64,000 nt of DNA from Scyliorhinus canicula (Eukaryota): positions 262,108,886 through 262,172,885 of the forward strand of contig NC_052147.1 in the NCBI RefSeq assembly GCF_902713615.1, in the 5' to 3' direction. The notes under the pieces are model-generated. The model was not told the DNA's origin and searched no databases. It saw nothing but the letters and a program-made list of their open reading frames with translations. The translations under genes were made by a program, and so were the position numbers. This document shows positions 4,095-64,000 of the stretch, one piece after another. Positions within the stretch are counted from its first letter, which is position 1, and each line of letters opens with the position of its first letter.

Positions 4095-4765
4095 GCACCC
4101 GCTCCACCCACCCAAACATTCCGAACCTTTCACCTCCCACCCACCCAAACATTCCCGACCCTTTCAGCTCCCACCCACCCAAACATTCCCGACCCTTTCA
4201 CCTCCCACCCACCCAAACATTCCCGACCGCACCAGCTCCCACCCACCCAAACATTCCCGACCGCATCAGCTCCCACACACCCAAATTTTCCTGGTCATAC
4301 CAGAGCCCCCCCGCCCAAACATTCCTAACCGCACCGCCCCCAACTCAAACATCCCGACCACACCAGCACCCACCTCACCCAAACATTCCTGACACACAGC
4401 ACCCACTCATGATTTCCTGACCGCAACACCCCCCCCCACCCAAAACATTACCGAGCACCTCCAGCATCCCAAACGAAACATTCCCAACCGCCCCCACTCA
4501 AACATTCCCAACCCCCCTCACCCAAAACATTCCTAACCGCCCCCACCCAAAACATTCCCAACCGCCCCCACCCAAAACATTCCCAACCGCCCCCACCCAA
4601 AACATTCCCAACCGCCCCCACCCAAAACATTCCCAACCGCCCCCACCCAAAACATTCCCAACCGCCCCCACCCAAAACATTCCCAACCACCCCCACCCAA
4701 AACATTCCCAACTACCCCCACCCAAAACATTCCCAACCGCCCCCACCCAAAATATTCCCAACCGT
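4095..4765. repeat. C-rich minisatellite: degenerate ~33-bp units grading into a homogeneous 25-bp unit (cccaaaacattcccaaccgccccca)
   Basis: Seen directly. Confidence 0.95.
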
Positions 4766-7700
4766 CCGCACCACATCTCCAGATGTTTCCAATGCTCTCC
4801 TCACTGCCATCCACTCTACAATAACCTAATTCATACTGACAAAAACCTGCCCAGCTGACCATTTCCAAACACCACTGGCTCTTTCTTCCTCAATCCACTG
4901 GCTTCAAAATTCTCATCCTCAGCTTCAGATTCCTCCATCGTCTCTCTGATACTCGCCATTGCAATCTCCTCAAGTCCAACATTGTATGTTTCCCCCATCT
5001 CTCGGCTCTACCATCAATGACAGAATCTTTATTTAGCTGACCCCATGCCCTGGAACCCCGTCCCTATAACCTCTCTCTGACAATGCTTTGATTACTTCCT
5101 CCAATGTTCCTACAAATTCTTCTGAGTGGTAATCTCACAGTTTATGTGGTTTGCTACATAAAAGACACACTATCAATACAAATTATCACAGCACTTACAG
5201 TTGAAATGCTTTCAAAACATTTGATTTGTGGACTGATTTATTGATCATGCAATAGGCTTTGTTGATAAGTTGGTGGCATGTAACATTTTTTGTTCCCTTA
5301 TTCATTGGCCTAACAAAATATCCACTTTACAACATCCAGTGAGCAGGAAGCAATGTCTGTACAGGTAAGAACGTAGCATCTCTCTCAGTTATTACTGTAT
5401 CATCACTTATGATTCAAAATTACACTCAATATCCCCCACTGTTGCCAGCAATTATTTTGGAAATGATTCCAGTGTATCCATATTATAGGTCGGTGCTTTT
5501 TCCAAGATAATAAGTTAGAGAAAGAAAAGCACCAATAAATTGAAACCTTTCGGCACTTCATGTACTTTTGTTTATTGGGGAACTTCTATTAAAACTTTGG
5601 CAAGAAAGCTTTAAGCAGTGATTCCCAAATTTAAAATTAATCTTGCTGTGACCATATTTTGATACTTGGATGATAGGAGCAGGAGGAGGTCTTTTGGCCC
5701 TTCGAGCCTGCACTGCCATTTATCACAATCATGGCTGATCATCCAACTCAATAGCTAATCCTGCTTTCTCCCCATAACCTTTGATCCCATTCGCCCCAAG
5801 TGCTATATCTAGCTACCTCTTGAATATATTCAATGTTTTAGCATCAACTACTTCCTGTGGTAATGCATTCCACAGGCTCACCGCTCTTTGTGTGAAGAAA
5901 TGTCTCCTCCTCTCTGTCCGAAATGGCTTATCCTGAATCCTCAGGCTGTGACGCGTGGTTCTGGACACACCCACCATTGGGACATCTTCCCTGCATCTAC
6001 TCTGTCTAGTCCTGTTAGAATTTTAAAAGTCTCGATGAAATCTCCCCTCATTAACTCCAGCGAGAACAATCCTAACCTAGTCAATATCTCCTCATATGAC
6101 AGTCCCGCCATCCCTGGAATCAGTCTGGTAAACCTTCGCTGCACTCCCTTAAGAGAAAGAACATCCCTCCTCAGAAAAGGAGATTAAAATTGCACGCAAT
6201 ATACTAGATGTGGATCCCAAAGAAGGTACTGCAAAAAACAAAATCCAGGGGGGGGGTCGAGCCCTCCCAAACCTACAATTCTACCACTGGGCGGCGACGG
6301 CCAAGCGAATAAGGGGATGGATCAAGGAGCCAGAAGCCGAGTGGGTGTGCACGGAAGAGGCTTCCTGCAAGGGGACCTCCCTCCAGGTCCTCGCCACGGC
6401 GGCACTCCCATCCCCACCCAAAAAACACTCCATCAGCCCGGTGGTGATAGCCACCCTCCAGTCCTGGATCCAACTACGGCAGCAATTTGGCCTGACCAAA
6501 ATGTTAGACAAAGCTCCCATCTGCAGCAACCATGGATTCACACCAGCGCTGACTGACGCCGCCTTTAATAAGTGGGGACAGGACAGAGGGACACTGACAG
6601 TCAGGCACCTATACACGGACAGCAGGATGGCGTGGATGAACTGACAGAGAAATTCCAGCTAGTCAGGCGGAACGAGCTAAGGTACCTGCAACTCAAAAAC
6701 TTGCTGTGAAAGGAGACAAGGACGTATCCACAACTGCCACGAGAGACATTATTGGAAGAGTTACTGGACGCAAGCATCCTAGATAAAGGGAACTGTAGCG
6801 ACAAGTATGACCAACTGGTAGAAGGGGCCGACACCGTACTGGACGCAACAAGAAAGAAATGGAAGGAAGACCTGGGGATTGAAATAGGGTGGGGACTCTG
6901 GAGCGAAGCACTGCATTAGGTCAACTCCAACCCCACGTGCGCAAGGCTCAGCCTGACACAACTAAAGTGGTACATACAGCCCACTTAACAAGAACTCGTA
7001 TGAGTAGGCTCTTCCCGGAGGTGGAGGATAGATGTGAACGGTGCCAAGGAGGCCTGGCCAACCACGCCCACATGTTCTGGTCTTGCCCCAGACTTGCGGG
7101 GTACTGGACAGCCTTCTTTGAGGCAATGTCCAAAGTGGTGGGAGTGAGGGTGGAGCCATGCCTGAAAGTGGCGGTCTTCGGGGTTTCAGACCAGCCAGAT
7201 CTATTCCTGGGGAGAAGGGCGGACGCCCTTGCCTTTGCCTCCCTGATTGACCGCCGTAGAATCCTGTTCAGCTGGCAGTCAGCAGCACCACCCAAAGCTG
7301 CAGACTGGCTGTCTGACCTCTCAGAATCCCTCCAAATGGAGAAAATCAAATTCGCCATCCGAAGGACAGACAACGGCTTCCACAGAACATGGAGCCACTC
7401 ACCCAATTGTTCCGGGACCCGTTTGTAGTCAGCGAACAAACAGAAGAATAGCCAGGTAGCTAAGAACCAGGGGAAAGTAGCCGAGGCGAGGGAGGGAGGG
7501 ATAGACCGAGAGGTGGATAGCAGCTAAACATAAGAGAAAAGAAAGGCAAACCACAGGAGAGGTGGGGGGGAAAGGGAGCAGAAGAGCGAGGTGAAGTTGG
7601 GAAGAGGGAGGAGACAGCGAACAATAGAGGGGAACCAGTGAGGTGGGGGGGGGAGGCAAGGGAATGACAGCCGGAAGGACGGCACAGGAAACAATAACAA

Positions 7701-35900: not shown

Positions 35901-38900
35901 ACCCTCTGTGTAAAATACTTACTTTGTACATCTCCTCTAAACCTTGCCCCTCGCACCGTAAACCTACGCCCCCTAGTAATTGACCCCTCTCCCCTGGGAA
36001 AAAGTCTGACTATTGTTGCCATCTGGGATGGCCACTTACAAAGGATCCCGGGAAATATGGCTACTTACAAAGGACCATGGGAAATATGGTGATGCACTAT
36101 CAATTACGATGAGACGCGAATAGAATGTGATCAAGGCTTTATTACGCAGAGATGTGTAGCCTCCCGCAGCTGCTACCAAAATGGCTGCAGCTCGGAGAGC
36201 CCACATATTTATATTCCGCCTACTGGGCGGAGCCAGCAGGCAGGGATCTACCCCCGTACCTGTAGTACAGGGGCCTTACTGTAATACACCTTATATACGA
36301 TATATACAATACAACAGTGGTGACTACCACATACGGTCAACCCAGGACTCAGGCGCTCAGAGCTTATGTATATTGGCAACTCAGATAACTAGACGCTATT
36401 GAAACCCCCAGCTACTTTGCATTCTAATGGCCCATTTCCCCAGAACAAAAGACCTGTACTTAGATAACAGATACAGAAACAGACTCATCAGCACCTCTCC
36501 CTTTGCTCAGGGAGTCCAAAAAGCCAAGGTCAATGATCGCTCAGGACATGCTCCGCCATCAAGGCACCCGCCCCTTTATTGGCCAAAATCGAAGGCAGTA
36601 ATCGAAGCCTGCCGAATTGTTGAGTCCAAAGCTAAGGACCGCCCAAAAGAGCGCAAAACCCCAGAAGGATAAAGAGAGACACTGCCATGTATTTGGTCTC
36701 CTCTTGGCCCCGGCGCTCGGTCCCTCTTGGCCCTGACCTATGCCTAAAACCAAGTGCGGCATCACGACCAAAAGCAAGTTCAAGTCCAACCATCGCTACC
36801 GGACGGATGAGCCCAGCAGAAACAAAATTACTTCTCCAGACTCAGCCACGCAAGATCCAAACAAAGCCCTTGTTCCTCTGTATAAAACCGGATGCGTGAA
36901 GTTAAGTACAGGTTGTTGTAGGGTTAGGTGTAATTTAGCTTGTAGTGTTTTATGTTGCATGTCAAAGTAATTCTTATGTGTAAATAAACTATCATTGAAC
37001 TTGAACTAACTAACTGGTTGTTTGGTCTTTGATCGATATCCAGTAAAACTTTGTGATGATATCATTTGATATCTGGCGACTCTTAAAAGCAATGTCATCA
37101 TTAATAACTGTCATATCAGTATCCAGTTAAAAAGAGCAACATTATTGGCGTCTCCGGTGCGAATTGGCAACACTATCCACTCTGCCTATGCCCCTCATAA
37201 TTCTGTAGACCTCTATCAGGTCGCCCCTCAACCTCCTTTGTTCCAATGGGAACAAACCAAGTTTATTCAACCTCTCCTCATAGATAATGCCCCCCCATAC
37301 CAGGCAACATCCTGGTAAATCTCTTCTGCACCCTCCCTAAAGCCTCCACATCCTTCTGGTAGTGTGGTGATCAGAATTGAACACTATACTCCAAGTGTGG
37401 CCTAACTATGGTTCTATACAGCTGCAACATGACTTGCCAATTTTTATACTCAATGCACCAGCCAATGAAGGTAAGCATGCCATATGCCTTCTTGACTACC
37501 TTCTCCACCCGTGTTGCCCCTTTCAGTGACCTGTGGACCTGTACACCAAGATCTCTTTGACTGTCAATACTCTTGAGGGTTCTACCATTCACTTTATATT
37601 CCCTACCTGGATTGGACCTTCCAAAATGCATTGCCTCACATTTGTACGGATTAAACTCCATCTGCCATCTTGCCGCCCAAGTCTCCAAATGATCTAAATC
37701 CTGCTGTTTCCTGACAGTCCTCATCGCTATCCGCAATTCCACCAACCTTTGTGTCATCCGCAAACTAACTAATCCGACCATTTACATCCCCCCCCCCCCC
37801 CCCCCCCCCCCACCTCCCCCTAACACCCGCGCAGGGCACCCCCGGTCCGACTGTCACCGCATGGAAAATGGCAGTCTGGTACCTTGGTAGTGCCCCTGCC
37901 AGCTGATAGTGCCACCTGGGGACCTCCCGCCATTCTGTCTGCTCTCCGTTTGTGGAAACCAGTGCAGAATACCACTTACCTGAGGTCTCTGAGGTGAAGG
38001 GGATAGATCACACACCCCAGGTGCCTTGGCAAACTGCATATTAGAGTGAAACTAGCTCTCTCGCTCTAATATGCAGATTTGTTTAACAGTGATCCCGCCC
38101 AATCGCAATGTCTCGCGAGATTGTGTTAGATCGCGCGATGCATGGCAAGTCGGGTAGATCCTGGGAGTGGAGTCTCCCGGCTTTTATCGCTCATGTTATG
38201 CCACAGCACACTGCTTTTCAGGTGCAGCCTGGTTGTTCGATCGCGCCCATAGTGTCAAGTCGGGATAATGTGTGGCTTGGAATGAAACTTACAGGTGGGG
38301 AGCATTCCCATACATCTGCTACCTTTGTCCTTCTAAGCGGAAGAGTTTGCGGGTGCCACACACTGCTGCCACTGTGCGTCGGCGGTGGAGGATGTGAATG
38401 CTGAAAGTGATGGATTGGTGTGCCCATCAAGTGGGCTGCTCTGTTGATGGTGTTGAGCTTCTTTAGTGTTGTTGGAACTGCACTCAGCCAGGCAAGTGGA
38501 GAGTATTCCAGCACACTCTTTGTATGTAGATGGTGCACTAGATGTACCAACAGAGGCTGGATACCTTCCAATTTTAATCAGCTGAATGCCCGGCACACAT
38601 AGGTCATTACTCGGTTGGAGATCCACTAAATCAACTCTGACTGAGAGATCTACATGGTCAGCTTCTGTTAGCCCAATATAAACTGCACATGCTTGGCCCC
38701 ATCTTACTTGCAAGGTTGTCAGAGCTTTGACGCAGATGATAAGTATCAAAGTTTAGAAATTGCAAAATGTATAAGACAATACTACTGGAGGTTAACCAAA
38801 TAATGGTGCATAGCCTGCCGGCACAGAATATTGAGGAGCTTCACATAGTCAAGACCACCCTTCCTATTAGGGCACGATAGAAATATCTGGAGTGAACATG

Positions 38901-48353: not shown

Positions 48354-49591
48354 ATCATCTGACCTGACTGCATCCGTGTTTTTTTTTTATATTTCGGACG
48401 CAAGTTTGCACAGTTTTCCTTTGTTGTCCCAATCCAACAGCAAAAGTGCAAACTCTCAGCTTTGATCTGATTAGCGACAGTGACTTATTTGACAAATTTA
48501 TTTAAACTGAAGAACTGCTATTGACGTAATGCTTGCTGCAGCCTTTAAGGGTAATTTAAACAATCGCCCTGGGGGTGCGGCGTTGGCACATTTATTCCCA
48601 GCTGAGGCTTCACATAGTTTCCGCCCAAATTCTTGTTTGTAGGAAGTGAGTTGTGTGTACCAATCAGCCTCGGCCATCATGGGGTAAAACCAAAAGCAAC
48701 TTGTGGTGTTTTGCACAGGCAAGGATGGAAATCTGGAAGTTGCTGGCCGAGATACCCTCCCCCCACACACACACACACAAACAGGATGCATTCTGCACAG
48801 ATTGCTATCACAATGGCACAATAATAATAATACTGTCACAAGTCGGCTTACATTGAGACTGCAATGAAGTTACTGCGAAAATCCCTTCGTCGCGACACTC
48901 CGGCGCCTGTTCGGGTTCACTGAGGGAGAATTCAGAATGTCCAATTCACCTAACAAACACATCTTTCGAGACTTGTGAGAGGAAACCGGAGCACCCGGAG
49001 GAAACTCACGCAAACACGGGGAGAACGTGCAGGCTCCGCACAGGCAGTGGCCCAAGCCTGGAATCGAACCCAGCTCCCTGGCACTGTGAGGCAGCAGTGC
49101 TAACCACTGTGCTACTGTGCCGCCCACTCAGTCGCTCAGTACTCTGAAAGGGCAAACATGTTTAATTGGACAGAGCTGAGTTTATATTGGTGGAGTAAGT
49201 GGAAATCAAGGACTGGAGAATTGCGGGAGCGGCGTCGGACCCGATCTCGGGGTTGACGCCCATTCTCCGCCACCGCGCCAAGCGCGATTTCGGCACGGAG
49301 ACTCAGAGAATCCCACCCATGGTCCTTGACAGAGGGTAGGGCTAGTTCCAATGGCAAAAGCACCTCGATGACTGGGGATCTCCCTACTGCTGCAGCCTTT
49401 ATCCTCCATCACAGCCGCTGATATCGCAGGGGTATCCTCCACCGGAGCCGCTACTGAGGACATGTTTTGGATTTCACTTTGTCGGGTTCCTCCTCGCCGA
49501 CCTTACCATCATGGGTGACCCTGTCATGAATTTTAGTCTCCTGATGGCATTGCTCTCGGAACGTTCAAGCCTCATACCACGGCTAGATGGC

Positions 49592-49878
49592 TGATGCGAC
49601 TATCAATTCACGCGAAACAGAGAGTAGGTGTAAACTGTGGCTTTAATCGCCTAGAACAATGCCTGCCTGCGACTGCTCTGCTAGTGAGAGTCACCTACAG
49701 GGCTGCTGCTCTTTATACCTCCCCTCAAGGTGGCAGAGCCAGGGGCGGTGCCCACAAGGGCACCAACATGATACACTCCATGTAATATCGTACAATGGTC
49801 CATAGGTGGAGTCCACATGGGCAACAGCGTGATACAGTAAGATACATGATGAATGGTTAATACAATACGTTCACCTCA
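49592..49878 (-). mobile_element. Gypsy solo LTR (duplicated at 53753-54039)
   Basis: TG...CA, perfect 5-bp TSD ATGGC, 3' terminus AATTGATAGTCGCATCA similar to the LTR at 59615. Confidence 0.85.
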
Positions 49879-51239
49879 ATGGCAATCCACGGAATGTCTT
49901 AAACTAAATAGTGAGGGGAAAGGATCACGAAACTAAAGGTGTGGTAAATCAAAGGGAAACGAGGAAATAGAGCAGAGTAGAGATTTGGGTACTGATAACC
50001 AGAGAGTGGCAAGATGGGACAGAGAATAAAGTTAAGAGCACACCAGCAGAAAAGATCTAACAGCACAAAAAACAGAATTATAGACTGTGTGTTGGAATTC
50101 ATACAGCATTCATAACAGAATGGATGAATTGCTAGCCAAGAGAGAAATAAATATTATGACCTGTAGCCATTACAGGGAAATAATTACAGGGTGACCAAGG
50201 CTGTGACCTAAATATCGAAGGATATTTGAGATTTGGGATTGACAGGAAGGTGATTGGTATGAGGGCCTCAACTTTATATGCATGCATAAATGGTTGACGT
50301 TGGCAGGACAGGTTGAGAGACTGCTTAATAGAGTAGAGTAGAGAGCACCCTAGCTTTATTAATAGGGGTACAGTGTACAAGAGCAAGGAGGTTATGTTAA
50401 ACTTGTATGAAATTCTGGTTCAACCTCAACTGAAGATCCTGAGGGACCTTAGTAGAGTGGATGCAGAGAGGATGGATGGGGTTATCTGATCCCGCCATGG
50501 TGGGACCCATTGCAGGAGATCTGGCGACCCGGCCATGGACATTAAATGGGAGGAGATGATCCCGACGGCGAGTGTTTAGAAAAACCTGCCCAATGTGTAC
50601 TCTTGTGGAAGAATCTAGAATGAGGGACGCTGTATAGAAATAACGGGTCACACATTTGAGACAGAGATGAAGAGTTCTGAGCGCTGGGATGGTGTAGAAC
50701 TTCAAAAGGATATAAATCAGTTAATGGAATGGGCAGAGAGGTGGCAGATGCAATTAAGTGCGGAGAAGTGTAACGTGATTCTTTTTGGTAGGAAGAACAG
50801 AGAATAATCATATAAAATAAAAAGAGGGACTTGTGTGTAATAATTGAAAGAGACAGAACAGGTTGAGAGCGGGCTAATAAAAAGATGCGCAGGCATTGAG
50901 AGAATATTTCCAGAAATGAGGAACTTCAGTCACATAGAAAAATTGGGGAAGTGGAGATTTGATAGAGGCATCTGAGCAGTGCAGATAGGGAAAATCTGGA
51001 AAATTGGAAAGAATTGAAAACAAGAGCTTTTAAGTAATTGGGAAAGAAGCAATGAAGGCATGAAAAACAGCGAGTGATTATTAAAAATGGGTCAGGGGCA
51101 TTGCTGCCTGGACCAGCATAGATTGCCTCATCCCGTGGACAGGGTGACTTGCTAGGGCCTTTAAGAGCCATTTCAGGGCTCTGGAGATACATACAGGCCA
51201 GAGCAGGTAAGGACAACAGATTTCCTTCTCCAGAAGACA

Positions 51240-51985
51240 TTTGTTTTATTTTAAGTATTTCTTTATTCTCCTCCTTTTTCACATTTTCTCCCAAATTTAC
51301 AACCACCAACAATAAACAATAATCAGTAATAAATATGTCAATCCCCATATCAATAACAACAATCCCATCCTGCCACCAAACCCCAAACATTCGCCCACAT
51401 GTTCACACAAACAAATGACAAAAATAAATCAGGAATCACCCGTAACCACCATTAACACCCATCGCCCTCCTCCCCCCAACCCTCCCACCCACTCCCCCTC
51501 CCCCCCCAACTAATGTTCAGTGTTATCCAGTTCTTGAAACTGCATAATGAATAATGCCCATGAATTGTAGAACCCTTCTATCCTTCCCCTCAGTTCAAAC
51601 TTAACCTTCTCAAGGGTCAAGAATTCCAACAGGTTACCCCGCCATGCCAGGGCACAGGGTGGAGAGGCTGCTCTCCACCCCAGCAGGATCCGCCTTCGGG
51701 CGATCAACGAAGCAAAGGCTACAACATCTGCCTCCGCACCTGTTTCCAACCCTGGCTGGCCCGACACCCCGAATATGGCCTCCTGGGGCCCAGGTCCAGG
51801 TTCACGTACACCACTTTAGAAATTACCCTAAAAACCTCCTTCCAGTAACCCTCTAGCTTTGGACAGGACCAAAACATATGAACATGATTAGCAATGTTCA
51901 CACACATCCTCTACTCCTTCAAAGAATCTGCTCATCCTCACCCTCGTGAGGTGTGCTCTGTAGACCACCTTCAGCTGTACAGCAA
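51240..51985 (-). mobile_element. L1/Tx1-clade 3' fragment (duplicated at ~55400-56140)
   Basis: NHVHMFWSCPKL, AFASLIARRRILLGW...LEKVKF. Confidence 0.8.
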
Positions 51986-52482
51986 TCGTTTCATGATTCG
52001 ATTGGATTTGTATATTGTCACGTGTACTGAGGTACAGTGAAAAATATTGGTCTGCGTGCAGTTCAACAGCTCAGTCCATAAAAGGAAAGGAGATACATAA
52101 TAGGCTAAACATAACATACAGGATTTAAATACATAGACACAGGCATCGGGTGATGCATACAGGAGTGTAGTACTACTCAGTAGCAAAGGTGTGTGAAGAG
52201 ATGAGGTCAGAAATAAGAGGGTCGTTTAAGAGTCTGGTAACAGCGAGAAGAAGCTGTTTTTGAATCTGTTAGTGTGTGTTCTCAGACTTTTGTATCTCCT
52301 GCCCGATGGAAGAAGTTGGAAGAGTAAGTAAGCTGGGTGGGAGGGTTCTTTGATTATGTGCCTGCTTTCCCCAGGCAATGGGAGGTGTAGACAGAGTCAA
52401 TGGATGGGAGGCGGGTTTGTGGATGGACTGGGCGGTGTTCATGACTCTCTGAAGTTTCTTCTGATCTTGGGCCGAGCAGTTG

Positions 52483-52646
52483 TGTGATGAATGGTATCAG
52501 TAACTGCTGTAACTGTACCTTGCCTTCAATACATTGGCCCTTTAAGACCGGGCTTGGAACCGTGGGGGACTGCGCCTCTGGCTCCGCCCCCAGGAATTGG
52601 TATATAAACTGAGGCTCACTCGGCAGCATGTGGTGAGCACACTTCT
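52483..52646 (+). mobile_element. 5' half of an LTR at the duplication junction
   Basis: Starts TGTGATG; has ctggctccgccc plus TATATAAA like the other Gypsy LTRs here; no CA terminus or AATAAA. Confidence 0.6.
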
Positions 52647-55600
52647 CAAATTTATTTAAACTGGAGAACTGCTATTGACGTAATGCTGGCTGCAGCCTTT
52701 AAGGGTAATTTAAACAATCGCCCTGGGGGTGCGGCGTTGGCACATTTATTCCCAGCTGAGGCTTCACATAGTTTCCGCCCAAATTCTTGTTTGTAGGAAG
52801 TGAGTTGTGTGTACCAATCAGCCTCGGCCATCATTGGGTAAAACCAAAAGCAACTTGTGGTGTTTGCACAGGCAAGGATGGAAATCTGGAAGTTGCTGGC
52901 CGAGATACCCTCCCCCACCCCCCCACACACACACCCACACAAACAAGGTGCATTCTGCACAGATTGCTATCACAATGGCACAATAATAATAATAATGTCA
53001 CAAGTAGGTTTGCATTGTGACTGCAATGAAGTCACTGCGAAAATCCCTTCGTCGCGACACTCCGGCGCCTGTTCGGGTTCACTGAGGGAGAATTCAGAAT
53101 GTCCAATTCACCTAACAAACACATCTTTCGAGACTTGTGAGAGGAAACCGGAACACCCGGAGGAAACTCACGCAGACTAGGGGAGAACGTGCAGGCTCCG
53201 CACAGGCAGTGACCCAAGCCTGGAATCGAACCCAGGTCCCTGGTGCTGTGAAGCAGCAGGGCGAACCACTGTGCTACTGTGCCGCCCACTCAGTCGCTCA
53301 GTACTCTGAAAGTGCAAGCTTGTTTAATTGGACAGAGCTGAGTTTATATTGGTGGAGTAAGTGGAAATCAAGGACTGGAGAATTGCGGGAGCGGCGCCGG
53401 ACCCGATCTCGGGGTTGACGCCCATTCTCCGCCACCGCGCCAAGCGTGATTTCGGCACGGAGACTCAGAGAATCCCACCCATGATCCTTGATAGGGGTAG
53501 GGCTAGTTCCAATGGCAAAAGCACCTCGATGACTGGGGATCTCCCTACTGCTGCAGCCTTTATCCTCCATCACAGCCGCTGATATCGCAGGGGTATCCTC
53601 CACCTGAGCCGCTACTGAGGACTTGTTTTGGATTTCACTTTGTCGGGTTCCTCCTCGCCGACCTTACCATCATGGGTGACCCTGTCATGAATTTTAGTGT
53701 CCTGATGGCATTGCTCTCGGAACGTTCAAGCCTCATACCACGGCTAGATGGCTGATGCGACTATCAATTCACGCGAAACAGAGAGTAGGTGTAAACTGTG
53801 GCTTTAATCGCCTAGAACAGTGCCTGCCTGCGACTGCTCTGCTAGTGAGAGTCGCCTACAGGGCTGCTGCTCTTTATACCTCCCCTCAAGGTGGCGGAGC
53901 CAGGGGCGGTGCCCACAAGGGCACCAACATGATACACTCCATGTAATATCGTACAATGGTCCATAGGTGGAGTCCACATGGGCAACAGCGTGATACAGTA
54001 AGATACATGGTGAATGGTTAATACAATACGTTCACCTCAATGGCAATCCACGGAATGTTTTAAACTAAATAGTGAGGGGAAAGGATCACGAAACTAAAGG
54101 TGTGGTAAATCAAAGGGAAACGAGGAAATAGAGCAGAGTAGAGATTTGGGTACTGATAACCAGAGAGTGGCAAGATGGGACAGAGAATAAAGTTAAGAGC
54201 ACACCAGCAGAAAAGATCTAACAGCACAAAAAACAGAATTATAGCCTGTGTGTCGGAATGCGTACAGCATTCATAACAGAATGGATGAATTGCTAGCCAA
54301 GAGAGAAATAAATATTATGACCTGTAGCCATTACAGAGAAATAATTACAGGGTGACCAAGGCTGTGACCTAAATATCGAAGGATATTTGAGATTTTGGAT
54401 TGACAGGAAGGTGATTGGTATGAGGGCCTCAACTTTATATGCATGCATAAATGGTTGACGTTGGCAGGACAGGTTGAGAGACTGCTTAATAGAGTAGAGT
54501 AGAGAGCACCCTAGCTTTATTAATAGGGGTACAGTGTACAAGAGCAAGGAGGTTATGTTAAACTTGTATGAAATTCTGGTTCAACCTCAACTGAAGATCC
54601 TGAGGGACCTTAGTAGAGTGGATGCGGAGAGGATGGATGGGGTTATCTGATCCCGCCATGGTGGGACCCATTGCAGGAGATCTGGCGACCCGGCCATGGA
54701 CATTAAATGGGAGGAGATGATCCCGACGGCGAGTGTTTAGAAAAACCTGCCCAATGTGTCCCCTTGTGGAAGAATCTAGAATGAGGGACGCTGCATAAAA
54801 TAACGGGTCACACATTTGAGACAGAGATGAAGAGTTCTGAGCGCTGGGATGGTGTAGAACTTCAAAAGGATATAAATCAGTTAATGGAATGGGCAGAGAG
54901 GTGGCAGATGCAATTAAGTGCGGAGAAGTGTAACGTGATTCATTTTGATAGGAAGAACACAGAATAATCATATAGAATACAAAGAGGGACTTGTGTGTAA
55001 TAATTGAAAGAGACAGAACAGGTTGAGAGCGGGTTAATAAAAAGATGCGCAGGCATTGAGAGAATAGTTCCAGAAATGAGGAACTTCAGTCACATAGAAA
55101 AATTGGGGAAGTGGAGGTTTGATAGAGGCGTCTGAGCAGTGCAGATAGGGAAAATCTGGAAAATTGGAAAGAATTGAAAACAAGAGCTTTTAAGTAATTG
55201 GGAAAGAAGCAATGAAGGCATGAAAAACAGCGAGTGATTATTAAAAATGGGTCAGGGGCATTGCTGCCTGGACCAGCATAGATTGCCTCATCCCGTGGAC
55301 AGGGTGACTTGCTAGGGCCTTTAAGAGCCATTTCAGGGCTCTGGAGATACATACAGGCCAGAGCAGGTAAGGACAACAGATTTCCTTCTCCAGGAGACAT
55401 TTGTTTTATTTTAAGTATTTCTTTATTCTCCTCCTTTTTCACATTTTCTCCCAAATTTACAACCACCAACAATAAACAATAATCAGTAATAAATATGTCA
55501 ATCCCCATATCAATAACAACAATCCCATCCTGCCACCAAACCCCAAACATTCGCCCACATGTTCACACAAACAAATGACAAAAATAAATCAGGAATCACC

Positions 55601-59614: not shown

Positions 59615-61828
59615 TATGGTAGTCACCACTAACTGTATTAGATGTAGTACGGTAAGACTCATGTACTAGAGGTACATAGGTAAATCCCTGCCTACTGGCT
59701 CTGCCCAGTAGGCGGTGTATAAATGTGTGTGCTCGCCGGTGCTGCTCCCATTCTGGGAGCAGCTACAGGAGGCCACACATCTTTGCTCAATAAAGCCTCA
59801 ATTATTCACTACTCTCTTCTTTGTAGTAATTGATAGTGCATCAATTTATTGAGCAAAGATTTTAAAAAGATGGAACTTCTCATCAAGTCTGATCGCGTAC
59901 AGCTGAGCTCTCAAGCAGCCAACACTGCGTCCGCTTTTGACCACTGGCTAGCCTGCTTTGAAAGCTACCTCCGAATATCTGCCGAGGAACCCTTGGACGC
60001 ACAGAAGCTCCAGATCCTTTATTCACGGGTGAGACCTGACATTTTTCCTCTCATCTGGGATGCGTCCACTTACTCTGAAGCAATGGAGCTCCTGAAAGGA
60101 CATTACGTTCGGCCAGTCAACAAACTATACGCCAGGCACCTCCTGTCCACGAGACAGCAATTCCCCAGTGAGTCCCTAGACGATTTCTGGCGTGCCCTGC
60201 ACATCCTAGGGAGGAACTGTGGCTGCCAGGCAGTTTCGGCAGTCCAGCACACAGAACTTTTAATCAGAGACGCCTTCGTTATGGGCATGTGGTCGTCGTA
60301 TGTCCGCCAGCGTATTAGAAGAGTATGCTTGATCTTGAAGGAACCAGACAGCTCACCAACTCGTTAACAGTGGCCTCCCGTAATGTCCAGTTGTACGCCC
60401 CCAACCACACGGCACCCTCATGGGCATCGTGGGCCTCACCAGCTACCGACCCCAGCCCACCACAAGCCTCCGCCGTGCGGCGGCCAGCCAACCCCAGGGG
60501 GCCCAAATGCTACTTCTGCGGGAAGAACAAACACCCCCAGCAGCGCTGCCCGGCACGGAGATCAATCTACAACGGCTGCGGAAAGAAGGGACATTTTGCT
60601 GCTGTCTGCCAGGCACGGTCAGTCGCCGCTGTTTCTAGGCCCAGCGTTCCTACACCCCCCACGTGCGGCCCACGCGCGCTGCCATCTTTGATGCCGCCCG
60701 CTATGTGCGCCCTGTGGGCGCTGCCATCTTCAGTGCCATTTTGGACGGAGCCTCAGGACACCTGCTCGTCGGGAAGCTCATCTGGCCGCTCATCGCCTGC
60801 CACCACCGCTGACCAGCCCGGGGCGTCCCAGCACCAGCCACAGCTCGCCTCGATCCCCCTCGATCACTCCCGGCCCCACAACCTCGCAACTGCAATGACA
60901 ACGGTGAAAATCGATGGGCACAAGACGTCCTGCCTTTTTGACTCTGGGCGCACGGAAAGCTTCATCCACCCCACGACGGTAAAGCGCTGCTCCCTCGCGG
61001 TACACCCCGTTACCCAGAAAATCTCCCTGGCCTCCAGATCCCATTCTGTGAAAATCCGGGGTTACTGCATCACGACCCTCAGCGTCCATGGCATCGAGTT
61101 CAGCAACTTCCGGCTCTACATCCTCCCCCATCTCTGCGCTGCCCTGTTACTTGGCCTGAACTTCCAGTGCCATCTCCAAAGCTTAACTTTAAAATTTGGC
61201 GGACCCCTACACCCCTCACCATATGCAGCCTCACGACCCTTAAGGTCGATCCACCTTCCTTGTTTGGAAACCTCACCCCAGATTGCAAACCCGTCGCCAC
61301 CAGGAGCAGATGGTACAGTGTCCAGGACAGGACCTTCATCAGGTCAGAGGTCCAGTGGCTTCAGCGGGAAGGCATCATTGAGGCCAGCAACATCCCTGGA
61401 GAGCCCAAGTGGTAGTAGCAAAGACTGGGGAGAAACACAGGATGGTCATTGACTACAGTCAGACAATTAATCGGTACACGCAGCTCACGTACCCCCTCCC
61501 ACGCATATCTGATATGGTCAATCAGATTGCACAGTATCGAGTCTTTTCCACAGTGGACCTCAAGTCCGCCTACCACCAGCTCCCCATCCGCACAGAGGAC
61601 TGGCAATACACTGCGTTCGAAGCAGATGGTGGACTCTATCACTTCTTTAGGGTTCCCTTCAGCGACACTAATGGGGTCTCGGTCTTCCAACGTGAGTTGG
61701 ACCGAATGGTTGACCGGTACGTACTGCGGGCCACCTTCCCATACCGAGACAACGTCACCATCTGCAGCCACGATCAGCAGGACCATGACGCTAACCTTCT
61801 AAAATTTCTCCACACCGCCAAACTCCTT
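59615..61828 (+). mobile_element. Ty3/Gypsy LTR retrotransposon: 5' LTR 59615-59843, gag from 59870, zinc knuckles, protease, partial RT; frameshifted and cut by CR1 insertions
   Basis: gag ARHLLSTRQQ..ESLDDF...IRDAFV; CYFCGKNKH..C / CGKKGHFAAVC; PR CLFDSG; RT RMVIDY...YPLPRI...STVDLKSAYHQLP...RVPF. Confidence 0.92.
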
Positions 61829-62535
61829 AAAAGAACATAGAACATAGAACATTACAGCGCAGTACAGGCCCTTCGGCCCTCGATGTTGCGCCGACCTGTG
61901 AAACCACTCTAAAGCCCATCTACACTATTCCCTTATCATCCATATGTTTATCAAATGACCATTTAAATGCCCTTAATGTTGATCAGTCCACTACTGTTGC
62001 AGGCAGGGCGTTCCACGCCCTTACTACTCTGAGTAAAGAGCCTGCCCCTGACATCTGTCCTATATCTATTTCCCCTCAATTTAAAGCTATGTCCCTTAGT
62101 GCTATCCATCACCATCTGAGGAAAATGGCTCTCACTGTCCACCCTATCTAATCCTCTGATCATTTTGTATGCCTCAATTAAGTCACCTCTTAACCTTCTT
62201 CTCTCGAACGAAAACATCCTTAAGTCCCTCAACCTTTCCTCATCAGTTCTTCCCTCCATACCAGGCAACATTCTTGTAAATCTCCTCTGCACCCTTTCCA
62301 ATGCTTCCACATCCTTCCTATAATGTGGCGACCAGAACTGCACGCAATACTCCAAATGCGGCCGCACCAGAGTTTTGTACAGCTGCAACATGACCTCATG
62401 GCTCCGAAACTCAATCCCTCTACCAATAAAAGCTAACACACCGTATGCCTTCTTAACAACCCTATCAACGTGGGTGGCAACGTTCAGGGATCTATGTACA
62501 TGGACACCGAGATCTCTCTGCTCATCCACACTTCC
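61829..62535 (-). mobile_element. 5'-truncated CR1 LINE inside Gypsy pol
   Basis: 193-aa ORF2 C-terminus; (TTCTATG)n tail at 61831-61850. Confidence 0.95.
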
Positions 62536-64000
62536 ATAGAACATAGAACATAGAACGATACAGCGCAGTACAGGCCCTTCGGCCCTCGATGTTGCACCGA
62601 CATGGAAAAAAAAAACTAAAGCCCATCTAACCTACACTATGCCCTTATCATCCATATGCTTATCCAATAAACTTTTAAATGCCCTCAATGTTGGCGAGTT
62701 CACTACTGTTGCAGGTAGGGCATTCCACGGCCTCACCACTCTTTGCGTAAAAAACCCACCTCTGACCTCTGTCCTATATCTATTACCCCTCAATTTAAGG
62801 CTATGTCCCCTCGTGCTAGCCACCCCCATCCGCGGGAGAAGGCTCTCGCTGTCCACCCTATCTAACCCTCTGATCATTTTGTATGCCTCTATTAAGTCAC
62901 CTCTTAACCTTCTTCTCTCTAACGAAAACAACCTCAAGTCCATCAGCCTTTCCTCATAAGATTTTCCCTCCATACCAGGCAACATCCTGGTAAATCTCCT
63001 CTGCACCCGTTCCAAAGCTTCCACGTCCTTCCTATAATGAGGCGACCAGAACTGTACGCAATACTCCAAATGCGGCCGTACTAGAGTTTTGTACAACTGC
63101 AACATGACCTCATGGCTCCGGAACTCAATCCCTCTACCAATAAAGGCCAACACACCATAGACCTTCTTCACAACCCTATCAACCTGGGTGGCAACTTTCA
63201 GGGATCTATGTACATGGACACCGAGATCCCTCTGCTCATCCACACTACCAAGAATTTTACCATTAGCCAAATATTCCGCATTCCTGTTATTCTTTCCAAA
63301 GTGAATCACCTCACACTTCTCCACATTAAACTCCATTTGCCACCTCTCAGCCCAGCTCTGCAGCTTATCTATGTCCCTCTGTAACCTGCAACATCCTTCC
63401 GCACTGTCTACAACTCCACCGACTTTAGTGTCATCTGCAAATTTACTCACCCATCCTTCTGCGCCCTCCTCTAGGTCATTTATAAAAATGACAAACAGCC
63501 ACGGCCCCAGAACAGATCCTTGTGGTACGCCACTCGTAACTGAACTCCATTCTGAACATTTCCCATCAACTACCACTCTCTGTCTTCTTTCAACTAGCCA
63601 ATTCCTGATCCACATCTCTAAATCACCCTCAATCCCCAGCCTCCGTATTTTCTGCAATAGCCGACCGTGGGGAACCTTATCAAACGCTTTACTGAAATCC
63701 ATATACACCACATCAACTGCTCTACCCTCGTCTACCTGTTCAGTCACCTTCTCAAAGAACTCGATAAGGTTTGTGAGGCATGACCTACCCTTCACAAAAC
63801 CATGCTGACTATCCCTAATCATATTATTCCTATCTAGATGATTATAAATCGTATCTTTTATAATCCTCTCCAAGACCTTACCCACCACAGACGTTAGGCT
63901 CACCGGCCTATAGTTACCGGGGTTATCTCTACTCCCCTTCTTGAACAAAGGGACCACATTTGCTATCCTCCAGTCCTCTGGCACTATTCCTGTAGCCAAT
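62536..64000 (-). mobile_element. Young CR1 LINE; ORF2 RT open for 455 aa (62632-63999) and running off the window
   Basis: Uninterrupted RT motifs ([30 protein letters not shown]), 3' UTR and (TTCTATG)n tail. Confidence 0.97.

Follow-up and report, generated by a model that had tools for sequence, protein, structure and literature searches.

A putative self-primer site with an internal, tailed primer arm in a Ty3/gypsy element of the catshark Scyliorhinus canicula

The window analysed here, a stretch of 64,000 nucleotides from Scyliorhinus canicula, contains near its end the 5' part of a Ty3/gypsy element. Its features, numbered from the first letter of the window, are as follows.

59615..59843, + strand: 5' LTR, 229 bp (sister copies 239-242 bp, TG...CA)
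59718..59723, + strand: TATA box, TATAAA, read from the sequence
59748..59751, + strand: putative RNA 5' end, placed from the stop point of read-through copies; +1 is A 59750, initiator-like, at TATA+31
59750..59778, + strand: putative unpaired 29-nt 5' tail of the primer, copied behind the slot in aberrant sister copies
59779..59794, + strand: putative primer arm, +30 to +45, ending in AATAAA; candidate primer 3' end at 59794, with a conserved RCC next
59798..59833, + strand: predicted inner U5 hairpin (59798-59804 with 59827-59833), G-U tolerant, with weak covariation
59845..59860, + strand: putative primer-binding slot, 1 nt past the LTR end, without TGG
59870..61830, + strand: gag with two zinc knuckles, protease and the N-terminal portion of RT, interrupted by frameshifts and stops
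61831..64000, - strand: LINE pieces inserted into pol, which cut off the window element; presumably CR1-like, judged by their motifs
36090..36331, - strand: solo LTR from a sister subfamily whose arm core differs, read from the sequence

The 5' LTR terminates in GTGCATCA at 59843, and a single A (59844) separates it from the slot, TTTATTGAGCAAAGAT, at 59845-59860. At every position, the slot matches the reverse complement of ATCTTTGCTCAATAAA (59779-59794), within which AATAAA occupies 59789-59794; the arm-to-slot distance is 50 nt, and the gag ATG follows at 59870. The naive chance of a 16-mer complementarity is 1.6e-7, and the fold has a z of -3.85. A preliminary description of this DNA had placed the LTR end, slot, arm, AATAAA, ATG and TATAAA, and all of these positions were found to be right when re-read from the sequence. 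Past the LINE insertion and beyond the window, the remaining pol of a same-family element is followed by an LTR (L065:3203-5237) that is 88.5% identical to the window LTR. The flanks lack a matching duplication, and therefore this part and the window element may be a recombinant of two copies. Elsewhere, the window contains a recent tandem duplication (48756-55097; spacing ~4.16 kb, identity 95-99%) and 34-nt and 25-nt minisatellites side by side (4097-4822).

The family is abundant in the genome (G000), with 2,343 candidates. The slot is identical in 23 of the 29 best other copies, chosen by similarity, and a second LTR is present in 15 of 19 longer loci examined. In 13 of these 15 two-LTR copies, an exact 5-bp target-site duplication lies directly past ...CATCA. 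The LTR end at 59843, previously proposed by comparison with the solo LTR, which lies on the minus strand, is thus confirmed independently. In the longer loci, the 3' LTR is preceded by a purine tract and runs into host DNA; the stem can therefore form at the 5' LTR only, as had been supposed.

The elements show the features of Ty3/gypsy LTR retrotransposons: two LTRs, a target-site duplication, a polypurine tract (PPT) and the order PR-RT-RH-IN. RT-RNase H relatives were named from catsharks, rays, whipworm, sea anemone and sea cucumber; these have a single frame of ~1,200 aa, two gag knuckles and the RT motif YLDN. This catalytic motif was read in several members (P0006, P0011, P0030 and L050), with YLDD in P0009, and the literature text searched had no match for YLDN together with 'retrotransposon'. 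The chromodomain found at the integrase C-terminus of Tf1/sushi elements (chromoviruses) was not found here: five proteins gave no match to a chromo or Tf2-type SH3 domain, and none of the Pfam annotations of 120 relatives includes a chromodomain. The Ty3 RT scores 133 bits, against 480-700 within the clade, which is a weak pointer to where the clade belongs. No relatives were found in viral contigs, and comparison with Rfam gave nothing near threshold, neither ribozyme nor tRNA.

The earlier claim that there is no tRNA-type site held. The slot lacks TGG, none of 12 LTR ends followed by TGG enters gag, and the best anchored match of the slot to host tRNAs is 5 nt (13 distinct tRNAs of 5 anticodon types). 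The TGG-initiated site complementary to a tRNA 3' end, which marks tRNA-primed gypsy elements, is thus missing. The layout is that of a self-primed element, with at least 10 nt complementary to its own R, 0-5 nt past the 5' LTR and no tRNA site, as far as these 13 tRNAs are concerned.

Arm and slot vary together. The slot junction that the preliminary description predicted for the subfamily of the LTR at 36 kb is present in the genome (382 matches; control 0), and most of the 15 loci read with this junction carry the matching arm. A pattern with the variable core left free gave 6,086 copies, and pairing was scored on the first 100, which were not selected on that core. Pairs 7-12 are Watson-Crick in 85-95 of these 100 copies, compared with 35-61 after shuffling, so that the complementarity is, as had been anticipated, kept across subfamilies. 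There are more than 12 different arm cores among them, each tracking its own LTR. Pair 17 is paired in just 12 of the 100, which gives the stem a sharp end at 15-16 bp. Among 16 chosen representatives, six pairs show two-sided changes and G-U is absent in those six; the inner U5 hairpin, by contrast, contains many G-U pairs, is 83-88% paired, has a single two-sided change and does not appear in the RNAalifold consensus. Changes in the distal 4 nt were counted in 29 of 100 slots vs 7 of 100 arms (p = 6e-5), which marks the slot end as an error-prone joint, as expected for strand transfer. Five dispersed copies (L356, L357, L361, L363 and L365; also L372 and L373) share a slot, just after the LTR, that pairs over only 11 bp with the arm. 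This suggests that an 11-bp duplex, the length used by Tf1, may be enough for replication.

The position of the arm in the transcript can be read from the promoter and from aberrant copies. A TATA box was found in 83 of 100 copies, and in 81 of these TATAAA is 73-77 nt upstream of the stem end; an initiator-like CCATT at TATA+31 puts +1 at 59750 and the arm at +30 to +45. In one copy (L190), the complement of upstream R stands behind the slot and ends at this predicted start. A genome search for such read-through junctions gave 249 matches, of which the first 100 were analysed: 79 extend beyond the slot, and 21 are point changes without extension. Twenty-nine of the 79 extensions end between +24 and +3. 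Among the 50 that reach +2, 29 stop within +2 to -2, where 7.5% would be expected from the upstream rate (p about 4e-20); the other 21 run past -2, 11 of them as far as the LTR start. The 29 copies that stop at +1 belong to many subfamilies and represent about 25 distinct junctions by eye. Their rejoining sites are scattered (17 sense, 5 antisense, 7 not placed), none has a PPT or purine tract before the LTR, and 20 have a clean LTR start in host DNA. The extensions differ from their own R by 6.1% (54/57 copies scored), as most paired LTRs do, and the read-through thus dates from insertion. In a comparison of low power, 33 copied tails were closer to their own R than to same-core copies, 12 were equal and 8 further.

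As we read these junctions, the element RNA, with its 5' end, is the only possible source of a plus-sense template that terminates at +1, and the slot read-through copies would map that end at 59750. A fold-back of DNA was considered as the cause of the stop; it explains long inversions, not the stop. A hairpin at the initiator was rejected, as polymerase would meet its 3' arm near +16 first, and later template switching in the host is disfavoured by the equal age of the arms. The initiator lies at the centre of an imperfect palindrome (59738-59766) that several subfamilies retain and that would be complete only in DNA or in the 3' copy of the RNA. In 11 loci (L260, L276, L284, L289, L307, L308, L322, L330, L333, L339 and L344), the slot continues into a whole inverted LTR, which is best read as a probable fold-back of plus-strand DNA on the same stem. 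Since 21 of the 50 extensions pass -2, 11 of them reaching the LTR start, there is more than one route to such junctions. RNA reads from four raw-read runs, on two copies, were mostly partial, covered both strands across the LTR and gave no usable start or end; six molecules in one run begin at 59796, which the other runs did not reproduce, and were left out of account. A search for poly(A)-tailed retrocopies that might locate the end of R gave three matches, without a common site.

The layout extends to distant relatives. Of 80 metagenome loci, 37 with DNA upstream of gag were tested and 36 scored; a stem of 11-19 bp at the same position is present in 25 of the 36, forming 13 families by eye, compared with a maximum of 10 of 640 in the shuffled control. 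It is absent from 11, some of which are mutated copies of stem-bearing families. Judged from these sequences, the self-complementary slot is a clade-wide arrangement. One family (L105) has a private two-sided change. In 12 of the 13 families, the 3' end of the arm is TAAA(A), followed by RCC or RCT. An AATAAA or ATTAAA hexamer lies within the arm in only 6 of the 13, and 7 have no canonical hexamer there; in L100, L101 and L144 it is unpaired in the loop. Because of this, the conserved item is the arm 3' end with its context, not the poly(A) signal. The most distant relative scored (L116, 47%) has a 14-bp stem and a leader of ~250 nt, and its arm ends in GATGAA, without TAAA or RCC. The TSS was mapped for one genome only; TATA-to-stem spacing in the distant families, judged by eye, is inconsistent, being matched in L162 and not in L099 or L144.

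These families also bear on the earlier proposal that the stem is a switch masking the 5' poly(A) signal. In support of it, folding predicts AAUAAA to be base-paired at the 5' end, but mostly open when the slot is left out; the generality of the proposal is not borne out, given the 6 of 13 families with the hexamer in the arm and the three in which it is looped. Where a true hexamer closes the arm, masking of the 5' signal is likely to be an additional benefit. It may be a second role in the window element, and not one of the whole clade.

Taken with the read-through copies, the covariation points to the following mechanism, which we consider probable. The element's own RNA, from +30 to +45, would pair with the slot, and its first ~45 nt, likely freed after AAUAAA, would prime in place of a tRNA. 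In this scheme, the arm would fold onto the slot within the element RNA, and a cut just after AAUAAA would free a 5' piece of ~45 nt, consisting of a 16-nt paired end at AAUAAA and a 29-nt unpaired tail. This primer would start minus-strand synthesis 1 nt from the LTR end, and plus-strand synthesis would copy the still-attached primer. The copy would normally be stopped or trimmed at 16 nt and drive the second strand transfer. Copying would run on and rejoin elsewhere in a small share, up to about 3% (about 200 extended copies vs at least 6,086 normal ones). Primer copying would also keep arm and slot strictly Watson-Crick. The genomic copies themselves display the pairing, the slot 1 nt from the LTR end, the covariation and the read-through that stops at +1.

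By analogy, the nuclease would most likely be the element's RNase H, and action of the cut in cis is extrapolated from Tf1. The RCC that is conserved just past the arm may be the sequence context of a cut site. The read-through product could also arise if a second, intact RNA annealed to the end of the plus strand. Searches for chimeras that would separate cis cleavage from an intact template gave 3, 18 and 4 matches, mostly intermediate subfamilies or single changes; the first of these counts is that of two-position mismatches between subfamilies, which occur only 3 times genome-wide. In a single case (L368:~1500), the arm core of another subfamily stands amid the U3, U5, slot and leader of one subfamily; a forced jump at the cut site may have left this mosaic. 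The 29-nt tail counts against the scheme, as it would create a flap problem at the second strand transfer.

To our knowledge, Tf1-type chromoviruses are the only elements in which self-priming has been proven; for a few plant lineages it has been predicted. The shark element resembles Tf1 and Tf2 of Schizosaccharomyces pombe, Tj1 and the Tf1/sushi group in its Ty3/gypsy domain order and in a slot complementary to its own R, and the inner U5 duplex, here predicted, adjoins the slot as it does in Tf1. In Tf1, according to the available part of the source, the PBS pairs with nucleotides 1-11 of the RNA, and cleavage by RNase H between nucleotides 11 and 12 yields a tail-less primer (PMC7175516); here, a duplex of 15-16 bp occupies +30 to +45 and would leave a 29-nt tail. 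Excerpts on Tf1 further describe a structure of three duplexes, in which the RNA 5' end is the primer (PMC10085805, PMC4600332, PMC5341516), and cDNA about half of which keeps a PBS copy, the primer being copied into a PBS overhang (PMC11042837). Of the three duplexes of this 'pretzel', the central one is strong in the shark element and the inner hairpin is 83-88% paired; the third was not found in the folds. The arm does not appear to be the very 5' end of the transcript: read-through, as judged from the copies, stops 29 nt upstream of it, at TATA+31. This is in agreement with the earlier suggestion of a geometry unlike that of Tf1. Also unlike Tf1, the arm ends on a poly(A) hexamer, and the shark clade differs from the Tf1/sushi group in having no chromodomain match, two zinc knuckles in gag and the RT motif YLDN.

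The HIV-1 poly(A) hairpin holds AAUAAA in a stem at the 5' end, lies within R and accompanies tRNA priming. Occlusion of AAUAAA within a 5' stem is common to both; in the shark element the partner strand is the PBS itself, present at the 5' end only. The Mag branch, CsRN1 and Cigr-1 share with the shark clade short LTRs, an internal region of ~4.2-4.5 kb and a 5-bp duplication, and resemble the clade's relatives in the single long gag-pol frame. They are non-chromoviral animal Ty3/gypsy elements and, in the accessible portions of PMC6238403 and PMC3601003, self-priming is not reported for them. Self-priming has been predicted for plant Tcn1 chromoviruses and for the copia elements TAR, Houba and Osr-1, on the same basis of at least 10 nt of LTR complement 0-5 nt after the LTR; these are plant elements of other lineages, and the part of the source at hand gives no evidence from RNA ends or read-through (PMC6317226). 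A self-priming animal clade of non-chromoviruses is not named in the portions available of PMC3601003, PMC6934838, PMC12471100, PMC6238403 and PMC13524379. No description of this clade's primer was found in the literature searched; subscription papers and Repbase Reports may contain one.

Other sources of the primer have to be weighed against a cut in cis. A short R RNA, released by the poly(A) signal of a 5' or solo LTR, could anneal in trans to the slot of the genome RNA and be trimmed to AAUAAA. Such a primer fits the read-through copies equally well and explains why the arm ends exactly on the hexamer, which is predicted to be open without the slot; solo LTRs also exist. We nevertheless regard it as rather unlikely, as the cis stem is short-range and stable (predicted duplex -20.4 kcal/mol), the copied tails are nearer their own R (33 vs 8, 12 equal; low power), the RCC past the arm hints at a cut-site context and the arm lacks a canonical hexamer in 7 of the 13 distant families. 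In a bolder version, similarly doubtful, a widespread animal Ty3/gypsy clade evolved tRNA-free priming apart from Tf1, and the host 3'-end machinery makes a capped R-RNA primer that is trimmed at AAUAAA, in cis or in trans from solo LTRs. If true, one hexamer would switch between production of primer and of genome, and the capped R RNA would be an element-encoded tRNA substitute.

That the stem chiefly hides the 5' poly(A) signal, while something else primes, is improbable. In this genome, the stem never varies in its AAUAAA, which is predicted to be fully paired at the 5' end, but the slot lies exactly at the place required of a primer 3' end, the hexamer is outside the stem in several relatives, the variable pairs lack G-U, the stop at +1 is left unexplained and no LTR end followed by TGG leads into gag (0/12). 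Marginally less probable again is an ordinary Tf1 geometry, in which the first base of the arm would be +1 and the primer would measure 16 nt: pairing does stop sharply at 15-16 bp, after a CA step, and Tf1-type primers lie at the RNA 5' end in the available text of PMC7175516 and PMC10085805, yet the conserved TATA and initiator lie 29 nt further upstream, and read-through goes 29 nt beyond the arm to stop at that initiator. We give least credence to a primer drawn from the 3' R copy of the genome RNA or from a host tRNA fragment. The same arm is present in the 3' R, where U3 upstream would give no stop at +1; half-tRNA primers exist in copia elements, in the part of PMC6317226 available, but here more than a dozen cores track the LTR rather than a fixed host RNA, and the tRNA comparison (13 distinct tRNAs, 5 anticodon types only) found an anchored complement of 5 nt at best.

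The slot is thus most likely a self-primer site of new geometry, a tailed variant of the Tf1 strategy, for which the new element of evidence is the set of aberrant copies whose slot continues as the complement of upstream R. If this is true, self-priming would have a further and probably independent origin in a large clade of animal elements, whose primer is built differently: the arm is internal, the tail has 29 nt and the poly(A) hexamer forms the 3' end. Control via tRNA supply and tRNA fragments would not reach such elements. The botched copies would show how arm and slot change together without unpaired intermediate states. They may also serve as a general tool, by which the primer and the transcription start of dead elements could be read from the genome alone.
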